A DNA stretch of 64,000 nt, taken from NCBI RefSeq assembly GCF_988243305.1, contig NZ_OZ547136.1; one strand, 5' to 3'. The position numbers and the translations under genes are program-made. Under the pieces are notes generated by a model. The model was given only the letters and a program-made list of their open reading frames with translations, had not been told where the DNA came from and made no database searches. Positions within the stretch are counted from its first letter, which is position 1; the number at the start of each line of letters is the position of its first letter. Below, one piece after another: positions 831 to 63,573 of the stretch.

Positions 831-3128
831 TTACAGCAACTCAAACTCGCCTTTCTTAACGCGTGCGGAATCAGTGCCGATAAAGACATTGAACTTGCCA
901 GGCTCGGCGTCATATTTCATCTGTTGATTCCAGAACTTCAGCGCCTCAATATCAATCGGGAAGCTGACGGTCTGGGTTTCGCCTGGTTTCAGGGTGATTT
1001 TCTCAAAGCCTTTCAGCTGCTTCACCGGACGACTCATGGAAGCCGTCACATCCTGCAAGTACATCTGCACTACCGTCGCCCCTTCGCGCTTACCGGTGTT
1101 CGTCACCTGCACACTGGCGGTCACTTTGCCGTCACGCTTCATGGTCGGCGCAGAAAGTTTCACATCAGAGACGGTGAAAGTGGTATAGCTCAGACCATAG
1201 CCGAACGGATAAAGCGCCCCGTTAGCTTCATCAAAATAACGCGAAGTGTATTTGTTCGGCTTGTCGGCATTATACGGACGCCCGGTGTTCAGATGGCTGT
1301 AGTACACCGGGATCTGCCCGACAGAACGCGGGAAGGACATCGGCAGCTTGCCGGACGGGTTGTAATCGCCAAACAATACATCGGCAATCGCATTCCCCCC
1401 TTCAGTCCCCGCAAACCAGGTTTCCAGAATCGCATCAGCCTGCTGATCTTCTTTCACCAGCGCCAGCGGACGCCCATTCATCAGCACCAGCACCAGCGGT
1501 TTACCGGTGGCTTTCAGCGCCGCAATCAAGTCACGTTGGCTTTGCGGAATAGTGATATCGGTACGGCTGGAAGCCTCGTGCGCCATCCCCTGTGCTTCAC
1601 CGACCACAGCCACCACCACATCAGATTGTTTCGCGGTTTGCACCGCTTCATCAATCATCTCTTGCGGCGAGCGCGGGTCGACTTTGACCGCCTCTTCATA
1701 CTGATTCAGGAAATCGATAATGCCTTTGTCACTGGTAACGTTCGCCCCTTTGGCGTACAGCACTTTACCGTTTTCACCGACGGCATTTTTAATCCCGGTC
1801 AGTACGGTCACGGATTGATCGGCAACACCGGCTGCGGACCAGCTGCCCATCACGTCACGTTTGCTGTCTGCCAGTGGCCCAACCACCGCAATGGTGGCTG
1901 ATTTTTTCAGCGGTAACGTTTCGAGACGGTTTTTCAGTAACACCAGGCTTTCGCGTGCCACTTCACGCGCTTCTTTACGGTGCAGGCGGCTTTCGGCATT
2001 GGTATCCACCGGGTCAGACTCTTTCGGACCGAGATGGCTGTACGGGTCGTTAAACAACCCCATATCATATTTAACGTTCAGTACATGACGGGCAGCGTCA
2101 TCCAGCTCTTCCATCGTCACTTTGCCGGATTTGATCAACCCAGGCAGATACTTCGAGTAATACTCGTCGCTCATACTCATGTTGATGCCGGATTTCAGCG
2201 CCACGCGCACCGCATCTTCCGGGTCTGCCGCCGTGCCATGTTTAATCAGCTCTTTGATTGCGCCGTGATCGGAAACGGTGATGCCTTTAAAGCCCCACTG
2301 GTCGCGCAGAACATCTTTCAGCAGCCAGGAGTCGGAGGTGGCTGGCGTACCGTTCAGCGAGTTCAGCGCCACCATCACCGCGCCGCTGCCTGCGTCCAGC
2401 CCCGCTTTGTACGGCGGCATATAATCATTAAACAGGCGCTGCGGACTCATATCGACGGTGTTGTACTCTTTACCGCCTTCTACCGCGCCGTATGCGGCAA
2501 AGTGTTTGACGCTGGTCATCACCGAGTAGCGATCTGCCGGGCTTTTACCCTGCATCGCTTCCACCATGGTTTTACCCATTGTTGAAGTGAGATACGTATC
2601 TTCGCCAAAACCTTCGGAAGCACGTCCCCAGCGCGGATCGCGCGAGACATCGACCATCGGTGCCCAGGTCATATTCAGGCCATCATCTGCCGCTTCATAA
2701 GCAGAGACACGTCCGACCGTTTTCACCGCATCGAGGTTAAAAGACGAGGCCAGACCGAGGCTAATCGGGAACACCGTGCGCTGACCGTGCAGCACGTCGT
2801 AAGCAAAGAAAAGAGGAATTTTCAGGCGGCTTAATTCCATCACCTGATCCTGCATGGCGCGGATATCCTGACGGGTTACGGTGTTGAAAATCGCCCCAAC
2901 CTGCCCGTCTTTGATCATCTCGCGGATCGCCTCTTTCGGATTATCCGGGCCGACGCTGATTAAGCGCAGCTGACCAATTTTCTCATCAACCGTCATTTTC
3001 TTAAGCAGTTCGGTGACGAACGCATCCCGCGCTTCAGGCGTTAAGGGATGGTTACCGAATAAATCATCCGCCAGTGCTGGCTGCAGGGCCAGACTCACCG
3101 CGATTCCTACTGAACATAGCCATTTCAT
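831..3128 (-). CDS. bglX: Periplasmic beta-D-glucoside glucohydrolase (GH3)
   Basis: 765-aa product starting MKWLCSVGIAVSLALQPALA (signal peptide); ORF-track N-terminal extension rejected. Confidence 0.95.
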   Translation of the reverse strand: MKWLCSVGIAVSLALQPALADDLFGNHPLTPEARDAFVTELLKKMTVDEKIGQLRLISVGPDNPKEAIREMIKDGQVGAIFNTVTRQDIRAMQDQVMELSRLKIPLFFAYDVLHGQRTVFPISLGLASSFNLDAVKTVGRVSAYEAADDGLNMTWAPMVDVSRDPRWGRASEGFGEDTYLTSTMGKTMVEAMQGKSPADRYSVMTSVKHFAAYGAVEGGKEYNTVDMSPQRLFNDYMPPYKAGLDAGSGAVMVALNSLNGTPATSDSWLLKDVLRDQWGFKGITVSDHGAIKELIKHGTAADPEDAVRVALKSGINMSMSDEYYSKYLPGLIKSGKVTMEELDDAARHVLNVKYDMGLFNDPYSHLGPKESDPVDTNAESRLHRKEAREVARESLVLLKNRLETLPLKKSATIAVVGPLADSKRDVMGSWSAAGVADQSVTVLTGIKNAVGENGKVLYAKGANVTSDKGIIDFLNQYEEAVKVDPRSPQEMIDEAVQTAKQSDVVVAVVGEAQGMAHEASSRTDITIPQSQRDLIAALKATGKPLVLVLMNGRPLALVKEDQQADAILETWFAGTEGGNAIADVLFGDYNPSGKLPMSFPRSVGQIPVYYSHLNTGRPYNADKPNKYTSRYFDEANGALYPFGYGLSYTTFTVSDVKLSAPTMKRDGKVTASVQVTNTGKREGATVVQMYLQDVTASMSRPVKQLKGFEKITLKPGETQTVSFPIDIEALKFWNQQMKYDAEPGKFNVFIGTDSARVKKGEFELL

Positions 3129-3323
3129 ATGGATTTTTCTTCCTCTGTTGCCCGACGAGGCAGCGAAAATGGTGCAAAAACCGTAGTTTGCCATAAGCAT
3201 GGTGGAGAGAGAAAAAGAATGCTCAGTTTATTGTCTGAATTTTCAAAATATTCACTCGCTGAATTGTCATACAAGGCGCTATTCTAGTTTGTGATATTTT
3301 TTCGCCACCACAAGGAGTGGAAA

Positions 3324-6010: not shown

Positions 6011-6183
6011 GATGAGCATTCAGATAGTGGTTCACGCGCACGGGTTGCGCACCGCCGGAGTAAGGATTTACTGAGGCTAGCGACGCCATCATAACGAGCA
6101 AAAAGTGCGATCGTCAAAGGAGAATCGTGAGGAAATGCTGCATTGCTGACATTTACGCCAGCAATGCAACACAAAAGAACTTT

Positions 6184-7637: not shown

Positions 7638-8399
7638 CTATTCTGGGTTGAACTGCGGATTCGCCAACATAAAGCCGCCATCCACTATCAACGACTGCCC
7701 GGTGGTGTAATTTGCGCCCTCTGAGCACAGCCACGCTACCAGGCTGGCAATCTCATGCGTTGCGCCAAAACGCCGCAAGGGAATCGAAGGCTCCGCGCCG
7801 GGCTTCACGTCGCCATCATCCATGCCGTTCATTGGCGTGGCGATCGCCCCAGGTGCAACCGCATTCACCAAAATCTTATGCCTGACCAGCTCCAGCGCCA
7901 TCGCTTTGGTTAACCCGCCGAGCGCATGTTTAGCGGCTGTGTAGGCGCTGGCATCCGGCAACGGCGTATGTTCATGCACCGACGTAATGTTGATGATGCG
8001 ACCACCCTGCCCTTGTTTCACCATCTGGCGGGCAGCAATTTGCGAGCATAAAAATGCACCATCGACATCAACGGTAAAAATCTTGCGCCACTCATCGAAA
8101 GCCATATCAAGAAACGGCGCTTTGGTCATTGCGCCCGCATTATTCACCAGCACATCAATACGCCCCAGCCGTTGAATGAGTTTCTCCAGCGCCAGTGCCC
8201 CTTCTGGTAGATTGCCGAGATCCAGCTGCACGATCTCCGCACGTACGCCGTGGCTAACCACCTCACGCGCGGTATCTTTTGCCCCTTCTTCATCAGAGTG
8301 CCAGGTAATACCAATATCAAACCCCTGCTGCGCCAGTAATAACGCGCACTCTTTGCCGATCCCCGAATCGGAGGCGGTAATAATCGCGACCTGTGCCAT
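7638..8399 (-). CDS. yohF: Short-chain dehydrogenase/reductase family oxidoreductase
   Basis: Product MAQVAIITASDSGIGKECALLLAQQGFDIGITW... with the SDR TGxxxGxG and NNAG motifs. Confidence 0.9.
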   Translation of the reverse strand: MAQVAIITASDSGIGKECALLLAQQGFDIGITWHSDEEGAKDTAREVVSHGVRAEIVQLDLGNLPEGALALEKLIQRLGRIDVLVNNAGAMTKAPFLDMAFDEWRKIFTVDVDGAFLCSQIAARQMVKQGQGGRIINITSVHEHTPLPDASAYTAAKHALGGLTKAMALELVRHKILVNAVAPGAIATPMNGMDDGDVKPGAEPSIPLRRFGATHEIASLVAWLCSEGANYTTGQSLIVDGGFMLANPQFNPE

Positions 8400-8451
8400 C
8401 GAGTTCTCCACTTAACGCTGAATAAACGTTAAGTATAGAAGGCGCATATCA

Positions 8452-9888
8452 TCAACGTTTGTAACCCCCGCCCAACGCACCAGTGAGTTGAATGGAGGCA
8501 TCCAGCCACTGCCCTTGCAATAACAGGCCATTGGCCCGCTCACGCAGCGCGGGGATTCTGGCTTCGCTGACGCGGGAACCCGCAATGATGCCCGCGTTAA
8601 AGCGCGCCTGCGCAAGACCTACTACACGCAAGGCATCGCGCTCAATTTGCGCCTGATGCTGGTTTTTCTCCGCCAGTGTCTGAACCTGACTAGCTGCCCG
8701 CGCCACGTCATTCACCGCTTCAACCACCGCTTTGTTGTAGCTGGCGATAGACAAGTTGCTTTCGGCTTTTGCGATATCGAGGTTGGCGTTAAGACGGCCA
8801 CTATCGAAAATGGGTAGCGTCAGGCCTGCCGTAACGCCCATTTGCTGCGCGGAATGACGGAACAGATCGCTTAAGTGCAACGCATCCTGTTGCAGGAAGG
8901 CCATCAGGTTGATGTCAGGATAAAATGCCGCTTTTGCCGCATCAATAGTGCTTAACGATGACTCAACGTACCAGTGCGCCGCCTGCAAATCTGCCCGCCG
9001 GGCCAGTAAGGAGTACCCCAGTTCATCAGGAAGCTGGCTTGCCACTTTCGGCAACGCGACCGGATTAAGCTTCAATGCCTTTGTCTGGTGATTTGTAAGT
9101 GCGCTTAACCGTGCCTCAATAATTTTCATTTTCCCCGCGACATCGTTGAGCTGCTGCCGGGTTTTGCTGGCATTAATATCGGTTTCCACACCTTCAACTG
9201 AAGAAGTAATCCCGTTCTGATATAGCTGGCGATCGGTGGCGATAATGGTGTTCTGCTCTTTTTCGATTTGCTGTAAGACAGTGTTTAACGCCGCCTGGGT
9301 TTGCCACTCCCAGTACAGGCGGGCTACGCTGCCAGCCAGCAATTGGCGGGTTTGCTCGCGTTCCGCCGCTCGTGCTTTAACCGTACCCAGGCGAGCAGTA
9401 ACCTCCGCCCGATTCTTTCCCCAGATATCGAGATGCCAGCCCGCCGTTAAGCCAAAAGTACCGTTGGTGTACCACGGACCGGTCGTACCTGCGGCAGGAT
9501 CGTTCAGAGCAAACGGCCCCATTAACCCTTCTGCCGACATTTTTTGCCGCTCCATATCCGCAGAAAAGTCGATCTGCGGACCATCCTGAGTGGCAACTGC
9601 CTTCGCCTGGGCTTCAGCCAGCTGAATGCGCTGTTCAGCCACCTGCATATCCGGTGCGTTCTGTAGTGCATTGTTAATTAAGGAAGTGAGCTGATTATCG
9701 TGATACTTCAGCCACCATTGGCTGTCTGGCCAACCATTTTTCAGCGCCGTGGGTAATGCGGTGTCAACTTGCACAGCGGGCGTTTGCTGGCTTAACGCCT
9801 GGCGGGTTTCATGCATAGGCGCACACCCGGCCAGCATCAGTAACAGCGGAAAACAGGCGATGGCGGGATAAAAGGAATCACGATTCAT
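8452..9888 (-). CDS. mdtQ: Outer-membrane efflux lipoprotein (OprM/NodT family); reads as an intact 478-codon ORF here
   Basis: Product MNRDSFYPAIACFPLLLMLAGCAP... (lipobox LAGC), uninterrupted to ...LTGALGGGYKR; outer membrane factor family by similarity. Confidence 0.8.
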   Translation of the reverse strand: MNRDSFYPAIACFPLLLMLAGCAPMHETRQALSQQTPAVQVDTALPTALKNGWPDSQWWLKYHDNQLTSLINNALQNAPDMQVAEQRIQLAEAQAKAVATQDGPQIDFSADMERQKMSAEGLMGPFALNDPAAGTTGPWYTNGTFGLTAGWHLDIWGKNRAEVTARLGTVKARAAEREQTRQLLAGSVARLYWEWQTQAALNTVLQQIEKEQNTIIATDRQLYQNGITSSVEGVETDINASKTRQQLNDVAGKMKIIEARLSALTNHQTKALKLNPVALPKVASQLPDELGYSLLARRADLQAAHWYVESSLSTIDAAKAAFYPDINLMAFLQQDALHLSDLFRHSAQQMGVTAGLTLPIFDSGRLNANLDIAKAESNLSIASYNKAVVEAVNDVARAASQVQTLAEKNQHQAQIERDALRVVGLAQARFNAGIIAGSRVSEARIPALRERANGLLLQGQWLDASIQLTGALGGGYKR

Positions 9889-10111
9889 GGGGGAATAATC
9901 AGGTAAGAAAAGGTGCGCGGAGATTACCGTGTGTTGCGATATATTTTTTAGTTTCGCGTGGCAAAACATCAGTGGCAATAATATGACATATCCAGAAAAA
10001 TATACACTAAGTGAATGATATCTTCCGATTTATCTTAATCGTTTATGAATAACGGCAAAGGGCTTCGTTTTTTCCTATACTTATTCAGCACTCACAAATA
10101 AAGGAACGCCA

Positions 10112-10195
10112 ATGAAAATTATACTCTGGGCTGTATTGATTATTTTCCTGATTGGGCTACTGGTGGTGACTGGCGTATTTAAGATGATATTTTAA
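10112..10195 (+). CDS. yohP: Small hydrophobic membrane protein, 27 aa
   Basis: ATG at 10112 preceded by aaggaa RBS; product MKIILWAVLIIFLIGLLVVTGVFKMIF. Confidence 0.75.
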   Translation: MKIILWAVLIIFLIGLLVVTGVFKMIF

Positions 10196-10447
10196 AATTA
10201 ATTAATGTCATCAGATCCGAAAATAACGAGAATATTTCAGTCTCTCATCCTGTTGCGCTCCTGTCATGTGCATTGCTTCATATAATCACTGGCGCAAGGA
10301 GCGCGCAGGGGGCGACCAATCGCCGCTGCGCGGTGCCCTCGGCTTATCCCTTACGGCTACCGGGTCGGCGATTTTGACGCCACCAAACAACCGTGCGGCC
10401 TATTGATAAAGAGCTAACACATTGTCAAAAAACATCACTATGGTTTT

Positions 10448-11395
10448 TTAGAGTTTCTCGATATCAATTGCCTGAATAGCCCTTGCAATATCAGGGGAAT
10501 TATTCAACACCCGAACATGCTGAAATAATTCCGTTGCTTCATCGTATTCTTTACGCAAATAACTCAACCACTGTTTAATCCGCGCAACGTGATATAACCC
10601 GGTATCGCCCTGCTTTTCCAGACGGGTATATTTTTGCAGCAAAGCAACTACCTCCGGCCACGGCATTCGCGGTTCGTTATATTTTACCACCCGGCTCAGG
10701 TTGGGAATATTGAGCGCCCCGCGACCAATCATCACTGCGTCGCAGCCGCTGATCGCCATGCATTGTTGCGCGCTCTGCCAGTCCCAGATTTCACCGTTGG
10801 CAATCACCGGAATATTCAGCCGCTGGCGAATCTCGCCAATCGCCTGCCAGTCAATATGCTCCGCGCGGTAACCCTGCTCTTTTGTCCGCCCATGCACCAC
10901 CAGCTCCGTAGCGCCAGCCTGTTGAACCGCATCGGCGATTTCAAATTTCTTCTCACCGCTGTCCCAGCCCAGACGCACTTTTACGCTGACGGGCAAATGC
11001 GCTGGTACAGCTTCACGCATCGCTTTTGCACCCTGGTAGATGAGTTCAGGATCTTTGAGTAACGTCGCGCCGCCGCCGCTACCGTTAACCGTTTTCGACG
11101 GGCAGCCGCAATTGAGATCCACGCCCCAGGAACCTAACTCCACCGCACGGGCGGCGTTCTCTGCCAGCCATTGTGGGAACTGACCTAACAACTGCACGCG
11201 CACCAGCGTACCAGATGGTGTCCGGCTGGCGTTTTGTAGCTCAGGGCAAATGCGATGAAAGACTTTTACCGGCAGCAGTTGATCCACCACGCGGACAAAC
11301 TCGGTGATGCACAGATCGTAGTCGTTAACTTCGGTCAGCAATTCACGCACCAGAGAGTCAAGCACTCCCTCCATCGGTGCCAGTAACACACGCAT
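10448..11395 (-). CDS. dusC: tRNA-dihydrouridine(16) synthase
   Basis: Product [33 protein letters not shown]..., Dus family, 315 aa. Confidence 0.95.
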
Positions 11396-25614: not shown

Positions 25615-27594
25615 TCAGAAGCGATAATCCACTGCCATAAAGTAACGACGTCCGTCTTCGTTATAGCTGTAGTCGTCACGACTGAGATCCTTGTCGCCAA
25701 GGTTCAGCACGCCTGCGCGCAGTTTGACGTCTTTAGTCACCTGCCAGGCCGCACCGGTATTCCAGATGGTATAACCGCCCGGTGTTTTAGCCGTCGCGCT
25801 GTCGGCGCGTTTCTGCCCGGTATAGTGACCAGAAACATAGAATGACCAGTCTTCCAGCGCCAGCGGTTTCCAGTCCAGCGTACCGTTAGCGGTATGGAAC
25901 GGCAGATCGGATAAAGGTTTATTTTCGCCGTTGCTGACATCACGACCATCGTTGTAGGTGTAGTTGAGTGACAGTTTCCATTCATCGTTGAACGGAATTT
26001 TCAGTTCGGTTTCCACGCCCTGAATACGAGCTTTGTTAACGTTGTAGTAGCTAAATACCGGCACACCGTTCGCTGTAAAACCAACAAAGTTTTGGTAGCC
26101 TGGTGCAGCATTGACGTCAGACGTACGGCTGATGCTGATACGATCTTTCACATCGTTACGGAAAACGGTAACGCTGGATTCAACCCCTTCCAGCCAGCCT
26201 TCTTCACCCATGTAGTAAAGCCCCAGCTCCCAACTTTCGCTCGTTTCTGGTTTCAGATCCGGGCTACCCACAATCTTACATGCGCCACGGCAAGAATTGC
26301 TCGTCCAGTCAGGGCTAAGTTGCAACAGAGAAGGTGCTTTAAATGCCGTCGCCCAGCCCCCTTTTACCGTTACGGTGTCGGTGGCGTTATAAACCAGGTA
26401 GGCACGCGGACTCCAGTGTTCACCGTAGGTTTCATGATCGTCCATACGTACGCCGGTCGTCAGCGCCAGCGGCTCGAAGATCCGCCATTCATCTTCCACA
26501 AACAGCGCGTACTGGCTGGCAGACGTTTTGGAGCTGGTTCCCCCAGTCAGGTTCACCGCATCGCTAAGTTTGTCGTGACGCCATTCACCGCCAACCGTGA
26601 GAAACTGATTAATCGCCGTCAGCGGCAACGTGTATTTGCCGTCGACCGTATTGCTTTCGGAAGTTATCGGGCTGCTGTTGCCAGGGTTTTTGTTCTCGAC
26701 TTTCTCACCGTAGTATTTCAGTTCGCTGGTGCCGTAATCCCAACGCCCATTATGGCTGACGGATTAGTTCTGGCGTTCCAGGCGGTTTTTGTCCAGCGAG
26801 TCGGAATCACGATCCTGACGGTCGAAACCGTATCCGGCAGTAAAATCGTGATTTTGATTCGGTGTCCAGGCAAATTCGACATTGCCGTCGCGGCTGGAGA
26901 ATCCTTCAATACGCGGCGTTTCTCCGGTATCGGTGGTCGTTGAGTTTTGCGGGTCATCCTTTTCACGTTTTGCCAGGCTGCCGTAAGCTTTCATTCCCAG
27001 CACACCGTCAATTAATGGTCCGCTGGTAAAGAACTGACCGTTATAGGTATCACCGCGATCGCGATGTTCCTGAATGGTGGTATCGACGGTAACGGTACCC
27101 GACCATTTCTGACCGATTTTTTTGGTGATGATATTCACTACACCGCCGAGCGCATCGGAACCGTACAGCGACGACATCGGGCCACGGACCACTTCAATAC
27201 GTTCGATGGAATCGACCGGGATCCAGTTCAGATCGAAATCATTGTGGCGGAAGACGGCATTGCGGGAGTTAACGCGTTTACCGTCGACGAGAATCAGGGT
27301 GTAGCTGCTGTCCAGACCACGAATACTAACGCCCTTACGGTTATCCCCTTCGTTCGTCAGTTGTACGCCAGGCACTTCTTTGAGGACATCCTTCAGATTC
27401 TGTACCGGTTTTCGCTGCAGGTCTTCCTGGGTAATGACGCTGATACTGGCAGGTGCATCTTTAAGGTTTTGTTCAACGGAAGATGCAGTGACAACCATCG
27501 TTTCGCCATCATCATCGACCGCTAACACAGGCCATGCACAAGAAATAGCGGACAAACACAGCCCGACCCGTACGAAAGGGTTCAACCTAAACAT
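25615..27594 (-). pseudogene. cirA: TonB-dependent catecholate siderophore / colicin Ia-Ib receptor CirA, interrupted by an in-frame TAA stop (plus-strand tta at 26764-26766)
   Basis: N-terminus [35 protein letters not shown]... (signal peptide, TonB box) runs to ...DKNRLERQN, then TAA; the same frame continues without further stops ([21 protein letters not shown]...) to the TonB-dependent-receptor C-terminus ...[11 protein letters not shown]. Confidence 0.8.

Positions 27595-63180: not shown

Positions 63181-63573
<393 letters not shown>

Follow-up and report, generated by a model that had tools for sequence, protein, structure and literature searches.

The open reading frame at positions 8452..9888 of the 64 kb window (the whole stretch of 64,000 nucleotides that was analysed) raises the question of whether it is an intact copy of mdtQ (formerly yohG), a gene labelled as a pseudogene in Escherichia coli K-12, and, if it is, whether the intact state is peculiar to this strain. 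Four TolC-like outer membrane factors are known in E. coli: TolC, CusC, MdtP and MdtQ. A preliminary description of the locus had read the frame as an intact gene for an outer-membrane efflux lipoprotein. On the premise that the gene is a pseudogene in K-12, it had proposed that the window either carries a functional allele or differs from K-12 at the lesion.

The mdtQ coding sequence is on the minus strand, with its ATG at 9888 and its TGA at 8452..8454; the preliminary description had given no strand. The gene is 1437 nt long and has 478 codons plus the stop codon. Translation of 8452..9888 reveals no internal stop codons in this frame, so that the uninterrupted 478-codon gene had been described correctly in both its coordinates and its length. 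The probability that a frame of 478 codons stays open by chance is (61/64)^478, or roughly 1e-10, and the homology scores given below make chance irrelevant in any case. A mdtQ gene of 1437 nt has also been called by PGAP in another E. coli genome. In a mechanical list of open reading frames the mdtQ frame reaches upstream to a TTG at 9978, which would give a protein of 508 aa. We rejected this start because the profile of the MdtQ model NF008524 begins at the ATG at 9888 (MNRDSF…) and because it would leave the signal peptide inside the protein. Several NCBI records give MdtQ as 508 aa, the length obtained from the TTG at 9978, with 30 residues (window 9889..9978, minus strand) ahead of the signal peptide. 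The start in these records is probably over-extended.

The identity of the product is indicated by a series of profile matches. The NCBIfam equivalog model for MdtQ, NF008524, was taken to identify MdtQ when its curated cut-off of 650 bits is reached or exceeded in an end-to-end alignment; the window protein scores 1020.7 bits, with residues 1-478 aligned to positions 1-478 of the 478 in the profile. The model for the NodT subfamily, TIGR01845 (subfamily cut-off 210.05 bits), gives 272.7 bits, residues 16-475 being aligned to positions 4-460 of 460. The C-terminus, …LTGALGGGYKR, reaches the last positions of this profile, which bears out the earlier remark that it is typical of OprM/NodT-family factors. 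The Pfam family PF02321 (OEP) matches two stretches of the protein (E=1.7e-30, 106.6 bits, cut-off 22), the first being an OEP repeat at residues 69-266 (9091..9684, minus strand; profile positions 3-187 of 187) and the second lying in the C-terminal half. The MdtP model NF007390 and the TolC subfamily model TIGR01844, on the other hand, give scores below their cut-offs (353.6 bits against 597 and 54.5 bits against 225.15, respectively). The window protein is a paralogue of MdtP and not MdtP itself.

The exact 478-residue protein is already in NCBI as MdtQ [Escherichia coli], where it is found on 106 contigs, and the cluster of MdtQ proteins at 90% identity has 11,156 members, including a 479-residue protein of E. 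albertii. The gene at 8452..9888 is the same as that for MdtQ / YohG (NF008524; UniProt Q8X659 in O157:H7). Nothing of substance separates its product from deposited MdtQ, and it differs by five residues from the frame-corrected K-12 protein. Taken together, these matches and the open frame make it almost certain that 8452..9888 is an ordinary intact allele of mdtQ. The sequence of the protein, its name and the contrast with K-12 are already known from deposited sequences, the reference annotation and the literature.

A sequence search showed homology between the whole mature part of MdtQ and 15 chains of outer membrane factors with solved structures, VceC of Vibrio cholerae (1yc9, 7e-40) being the best match, followed by OprM of Pseudomonas aeruginosa (1wp1, 3e-23), SilC, CusC of E. 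coli (3pik, 2e-21), CmeC, MtrE, OprN and OprJ. VceC, OprM and CusC share this full-length homology but are distant from MdtQ in sequence, and they differ from it in having a known adaptor or pump partner encoded alongside. The closest E. coli paralogue is MdtP (YjcP; E=1.7e-105), which belongs to the same NodT lipoprotein subfamily and is the outer membrane factor encoded by mdtNOP. Whereas mdtP is in an operon with its adaptor and pump, mdtQ is alone (PMC11762307). TolC differs from MdtQ: it is not a lipoprotein, unlike MdtQ, which is predicted to be one, and the two have 12% sequence identity (PMC11762307).

Read from the translation, codons 1-22 (9823..9888, minus strand) encode a lipoprotein signal peptide, MNRDSFYPAIACFPLLLMLAGC, with a charged n-region, a hydrophobic core and the lipobox L-A-G-C at codons 19-22 (9823..9834, minus strand). 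The lipobox ends in Cys22, which is followed by Ala, so that the pattern MNRDSFYPAIACFPLLLMLAG-C, LAGC, Cys22, Ala is that of a lipoprotein signal; the preliminary description was right in pointing out both the signal and its LAGC. Lipoboxes of this kind are processed by the enzymes Lgt, LspA and Lnt, and an Ala at position +2 is read by the Lol pathway as a signal for sorting to the outer membrane. Mature MdtQ would begin with Cys22, and this residue would carry the lipid.

The membership of MdtQ in the NodT/OprM family suggests a mechanism in which lipidation, localisation, the formation of a trimeric channel, expression and a role in efflux are all predicted from its relatives. The precursor would be exported, Cys22 would be modified with a diacylglyceryl group, signal peptidase II would cleave before it and the new N-terminus would be acylated. 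The Lol system would then take the protein to the outer membrane, since residue +2 is Ala and not Asp. By homology to the structures of VceC, OprM and CusC, MdtQ is expected to form a trimer with a β-barrel pore and a long α-helical periplasmic tunnel, to which each protomer would contribute four strands of a 12-strand barrel as well as tunnel helices. The tunnel would dock on an adaptor in the periplasm and a transporter in the inner membrane, completing a tripartite efflux pump as its exit duct, and it would open once engaged by an adaptor bound to the energised transporter.

In MG1655 (NC_000913.3) the orthologous locus, b2139, is annotated as a mdtQ pseudogene at 2227323..2228758, as the preliminary description had stated. 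It is 1436 bp long, one base short of mdtQ in the window, and has 98.0% nucleotide identity to it. When the window gene is aligned with those of K-12 and a pig isolate, there is a single indel: one A is absent from the K-12 run GCTGAAAAATGG, which changes A5 to A4 at codon 50. In the window the run is A5 on the gene strand (T5 on the plus strand) at nt 148-152 of the gene, codons 49-51 (9737..9741, minus strand), in the context GCTG-AAAAA-TGG. The preliminary description had allowed that K-12 might have exactly the same open frame; the alignment shows that it does not, as it has A4 and not A5, and mdtQ in the window is without such a lesion. After the lesion the K-12 frame reads …ALPTALKMVGQTANGG… and stops near codon 70 (~69 residues), while the shifted frame stays open over the remaining ~430 codons. 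The K-12 lineage lost one A, probably by replication slippage. The change from A5 to A4 gives a truncated product of 69 residues and accounts for the annotation of b2139 as a pseudogene.

With the missing A put back, K-12 mdtQ is 478 codons long, and 28 of its positions are different in the window gene, 23 by synonymous and five by non-synonymous changes (from K-12 to the window: A39V, E61K, N267H, S271A and K275N). These differences correspond to a dS of 0.071 and a dN of 0.0046. The resulting dN/dS of 0.064 shows that purifying selection has acted on mdtQ while these lineages diverged. Additionally, there are no secondary lesions in K-12 mdtQ, and the K-12 lesion is therefore young.

We surveyed both forms of the run among 5,426 complete RefSeq E. 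coli genomes. The A4 allele was probed with a 45-mer centred on the K-12 run, for which a megablast match requires the exact run, and was found in 355 genomes. Of the 355 carriers we inspected 60, taken at even spacing, and 59 look like K-12 laboratory derivatives or K-12-sized chromosomes. Examples in the sample are MG1655, BW25113, DH5alpha, DH1, JM109, MC4100, C600, J53, TG1, HMS174, EPI300 and O16:H48 mouse-gut evolution lines. At least 4,942 of the 5,426 genomes have the A5 46-mer (4,626 of them exact), and 5,423 have the mdtQ gene region. These results clearly show that the intact A5 site is the norm in E. coli and the K-12 lineage the exception. The two-part proposal of the preliminary description can now be separated: the window does differ from K-12 at the lesion (A5 versus A4), but it does not carry a functional allele special to this strain. 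The same conclusion is already in the literature, as a 2025 review describes mdtQ as conserved in the E. coli core genome, in the phylogroups examined, despite its pseudogene label (PMC11762307). The term 'mdtQ pseudogene' is used for K-12 in the paper on YohP, which places yohP between the pseudogene and dusC (PMC12719787).

The exception among the 60 sampled A4 carriers is EcN_Sk (NZ_CP172017.1, 5.06 Mb, human stool), in which mdtQ, at 1877..3312, is flagged as frameshifted. A second, independent slip to A4 outside K-12 was considered for this strain and rejected, because its mdtQ is 100% identical to that of K-12 over all 1436 nt. This suggests that the EcN_Sk locus is derived from K-12, the strain being, for example, a hybrid, engineered or mislabelled. 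E. coli AVS0051 (NZ_CP124429.1), isolated from a river or lake, has an IS1-family transposase that divides the match to the mdtQ region into two pieces, an independent inactivation of another kind. Independent truncation of mdtQ has also been described in some isolates of Salmonella Typhi and Paratyphi A (PMC9241588). mdtQ is dispensable in some lineages: K-12, these Typhi and Paratyphi A isolates and the E. coli isolate with IS1 in the gene.

An intact frame could also be found if the window were K-12 itself or a derivative in which the frameshift had reverted, or if the lesion were a sequencing error in the reference. In accordance with a K-12 origin, all 57 K-12 genes compared, from osmF to yejK, have the same order and orientation in the window, 56 of them being intact and cirA broken, and there are no IS elements in the 64 kb. 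However, the per-gene identity to K-12 ranges from 94% (the osmF fragment) to 100% (yohP), a mosaic pattern that is typical of recombination, and the 5.2 kb around mdtQ are 97.2% identical to K-12. The 28 substitutions within mdtQ alone, together with this range of identities, led us to reject a K-12 strain with a reverted frameshift; the spacer between yohP and dusC, which is 120 bp shorter than in K-12, and a nonsense codon plus a 12-nt indel in cirA also speak against it. The nearest sequence that we found is not K-12 but a draft E. coli genome, GCA_047678995.1, with 1 mismatch in 7,437 bp. An error in the reference is countered by the A4 run itself, which has been reproduced in 355 independently sequenced genomes. 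The alignments and the 355 genomes with A4 together refute this explanation, and we give it practically no weight. The statement in the preliminary description that the window is not the MG1655 sequence is therefore upheld by the lesion, by the 28 differences in mdtQ and by the 97.2% identity over 5.2 kb.

The relatives of the window can be described further. Over its first 25 kb no complete RefSeq E. coli genome (of 5,426) is above 98.8% identity, so that the source is a natural E. coli lineage without a close relative among these genomes. In the mdtQ region only two complete genomes reach 99.6%, and both are from pig isolates. Shigella was considered as the source, in view of the cirA stop and of the fragmented contigs on which that allele occurs, but it is unlikely: the 64 kb contain no IS element, the genes are fully collinear with those of K-12, and the records that match are labelled E. 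coli.

The nonsense codon in cirA (25615..27594, minus strand), which had been noted in the preliminary description, is real: TAC is changed to TAA at codon 277, placing the stop at 26764..26766. The product of cirA is the receptor for catecholate siderophores, colicins Ia/Ib and cefiderocol. The 12-nt indel relative to K-12 is in frame and lies near nt 1529 of the gene. None of the 5,426 complete RefSeq E. coli genomes contains the 51-mer with the TAA. Nevertheless, the public assembly collection has 137 blocks with precisely the 276-residue N-terminal product of CirA, and over 4.8 kb the SRA assembly ERR15422816 matches the window at 100% identity. Other carriers of a stop at codon 277 are only 98.2-99% identical, and in these the stop arises by TAA, TAG or a short deletion. 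These differing routes to the same stop, in carriers that are only 98.2-99% identical, suggest repeated independent loss of cirA.

The gene order yohD, yohF, mdtQ, yohP, dusC is common to the window, K-12 and other E. coli. The window gene thus has the position expected of mdtQ, between yohF and yohP/dusC, and is monocistronic with respect to efflux genes; there is no adaptor, RND, MFS or ABC partner gene adjoining it. mdtQ has been described as a gene that 'is encoded independently' and whose transport partner is not established (PMC11762307). Downstream and on the same strand is yohF (7638..8399, minus strand), which is intact, has 96.3% identity to its K-12 counterpart and encodes an SDR-family oxidoreductase rather than an efflux component. 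It starts 52 bp downstream of mdtQ, and a scan of the minus strand gave no terminator-like site in this interval. mdtQ and yohF may be co-transcribed.

Upstream of mdtQ there is a 223 bp spacer (9889..10111), followed by the divergent yohP (10112..10195, plus strand), which has the same sequence as K-12 yohP (100% identity) and encodes a small membrane protein of 27 residues. The spacer must hold the promoter and the 5' UTR of mdtQ. The upstream region of mdtQ has 3 mismatches to K-12 in the 112 nt compared. The 15 nt that lead up to the ATG (9889..9903, minus strand; …CTGATTATTCCCCC-ATG) lack a Shine-Dalgarno-like sequence, and CTGATTATTCCCCC is identical in the window and in K-12. A scan of 8300..10500 for σ70 promoters and terminators did not exceed the level of shuffled sequence; it gave 2 promoter sites, compared with 2.3 expected, and the only site on the minus strand falls inside yohP. 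An Rfam scan of the whole window gave no match at or near mdtQ. The mdtQ promoter has no experimental confirmation (PMC11762307). The lack of a Shine-Dalgarno-like sequence, a promoter scan at the level of chance and the lack of an Rfam match suggest that the expression signals of mdtQ are weak or of an unrecognised kind, and expression of the gene appears doubtful from these signals.

The same Rfam scan gave two matches above the gathering score, each in its expected place: a Peptidase-S11 RNA motif (6015..6095, minus strand, 72.8 bits) upstream of pbpG and an L25 ribosomal-protein leader (63242..63267, plus strand, 46.9 bits) upstream of rplY. On the far side of yohP, the shortening of the yohP-dusC spacer (10196..10447) relative to K-12 is due to gaps of 41 and 79 bp. 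These gaps lie inside the GC-rich repeat TRIP1c, which has been implicated in chromosomal rearrangements (PMC10888264), and the window carries a shorter variant of this repeat.

The features of the promoter region raise the possibility that mdtQ, although open, is effectively cryptic, that is, a silent or barely expressed orphan which is intact only for lack of time to decay. The lack of a Shine-Dalgarno-like sequence and of a promoter signal above chance (with none mapped experimentally; PMC11762307) fits this explanation, as does the lack of an adjoining adaptor or pump gene, and the loss of mdtQ has been tolerated in K-12, in some Typhi and Paratyphi A isolates and in the E. coli isolate with IS1 in the gene. 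Over a synonymous divergence of ~7%, however, a dN/dS of 0.064 is unlike that of unselected sequence. Additionally, the A5 run is retained in at least 4,942 of 5,426 genomes, mdtQ is a core gene in the phylogroups examined (PMC11762307), and the large protein cluster at 90% identity extends to E. albertii. We consider it improbable, therefore, that mdtQ is a cryptic gene. A drug-susceptibility phenotype has been ascribed to null mutants whose strain is given simply as 'E. coli' (PMC11762307). These mutants were reportedly made in K-12. If they were, mdtQ was already frameshifted there, which would weaken the evidence for a function that their phenotype offers.

In summary, the data show that mdtQ in the window has the intact form that is usual in E. 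coli. The label 'mdtQ pseudogene' fits the K-12 lineage and not the species, and the value of this result is mainly one of annotation hygiene. Nearly all E. coli efflux genetics has been done in K-12, where mdtQ is frameshifted, and for this reason the standing of TolC as a near-universal exit duct could be partly an artefact of K-12. We put forward, tentatively and as less likely to be true than not, that in wild strains a particular pump or exporter uses MdtQ as its outer-membrane channel, or that MdtQ stands in for TolC under some condition. The intact gene, its dN/dS of 0.064 and its near-universal conservation are compatible with either role. If MdtQ does have such a role, its effects on the export of drugs, bile or toxins would be hidden in K-12. 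For work on outer-membrane efflux channels, TolC-independent export or vaccines based on outer membrane proteins, a strain with the intact allele should be used.
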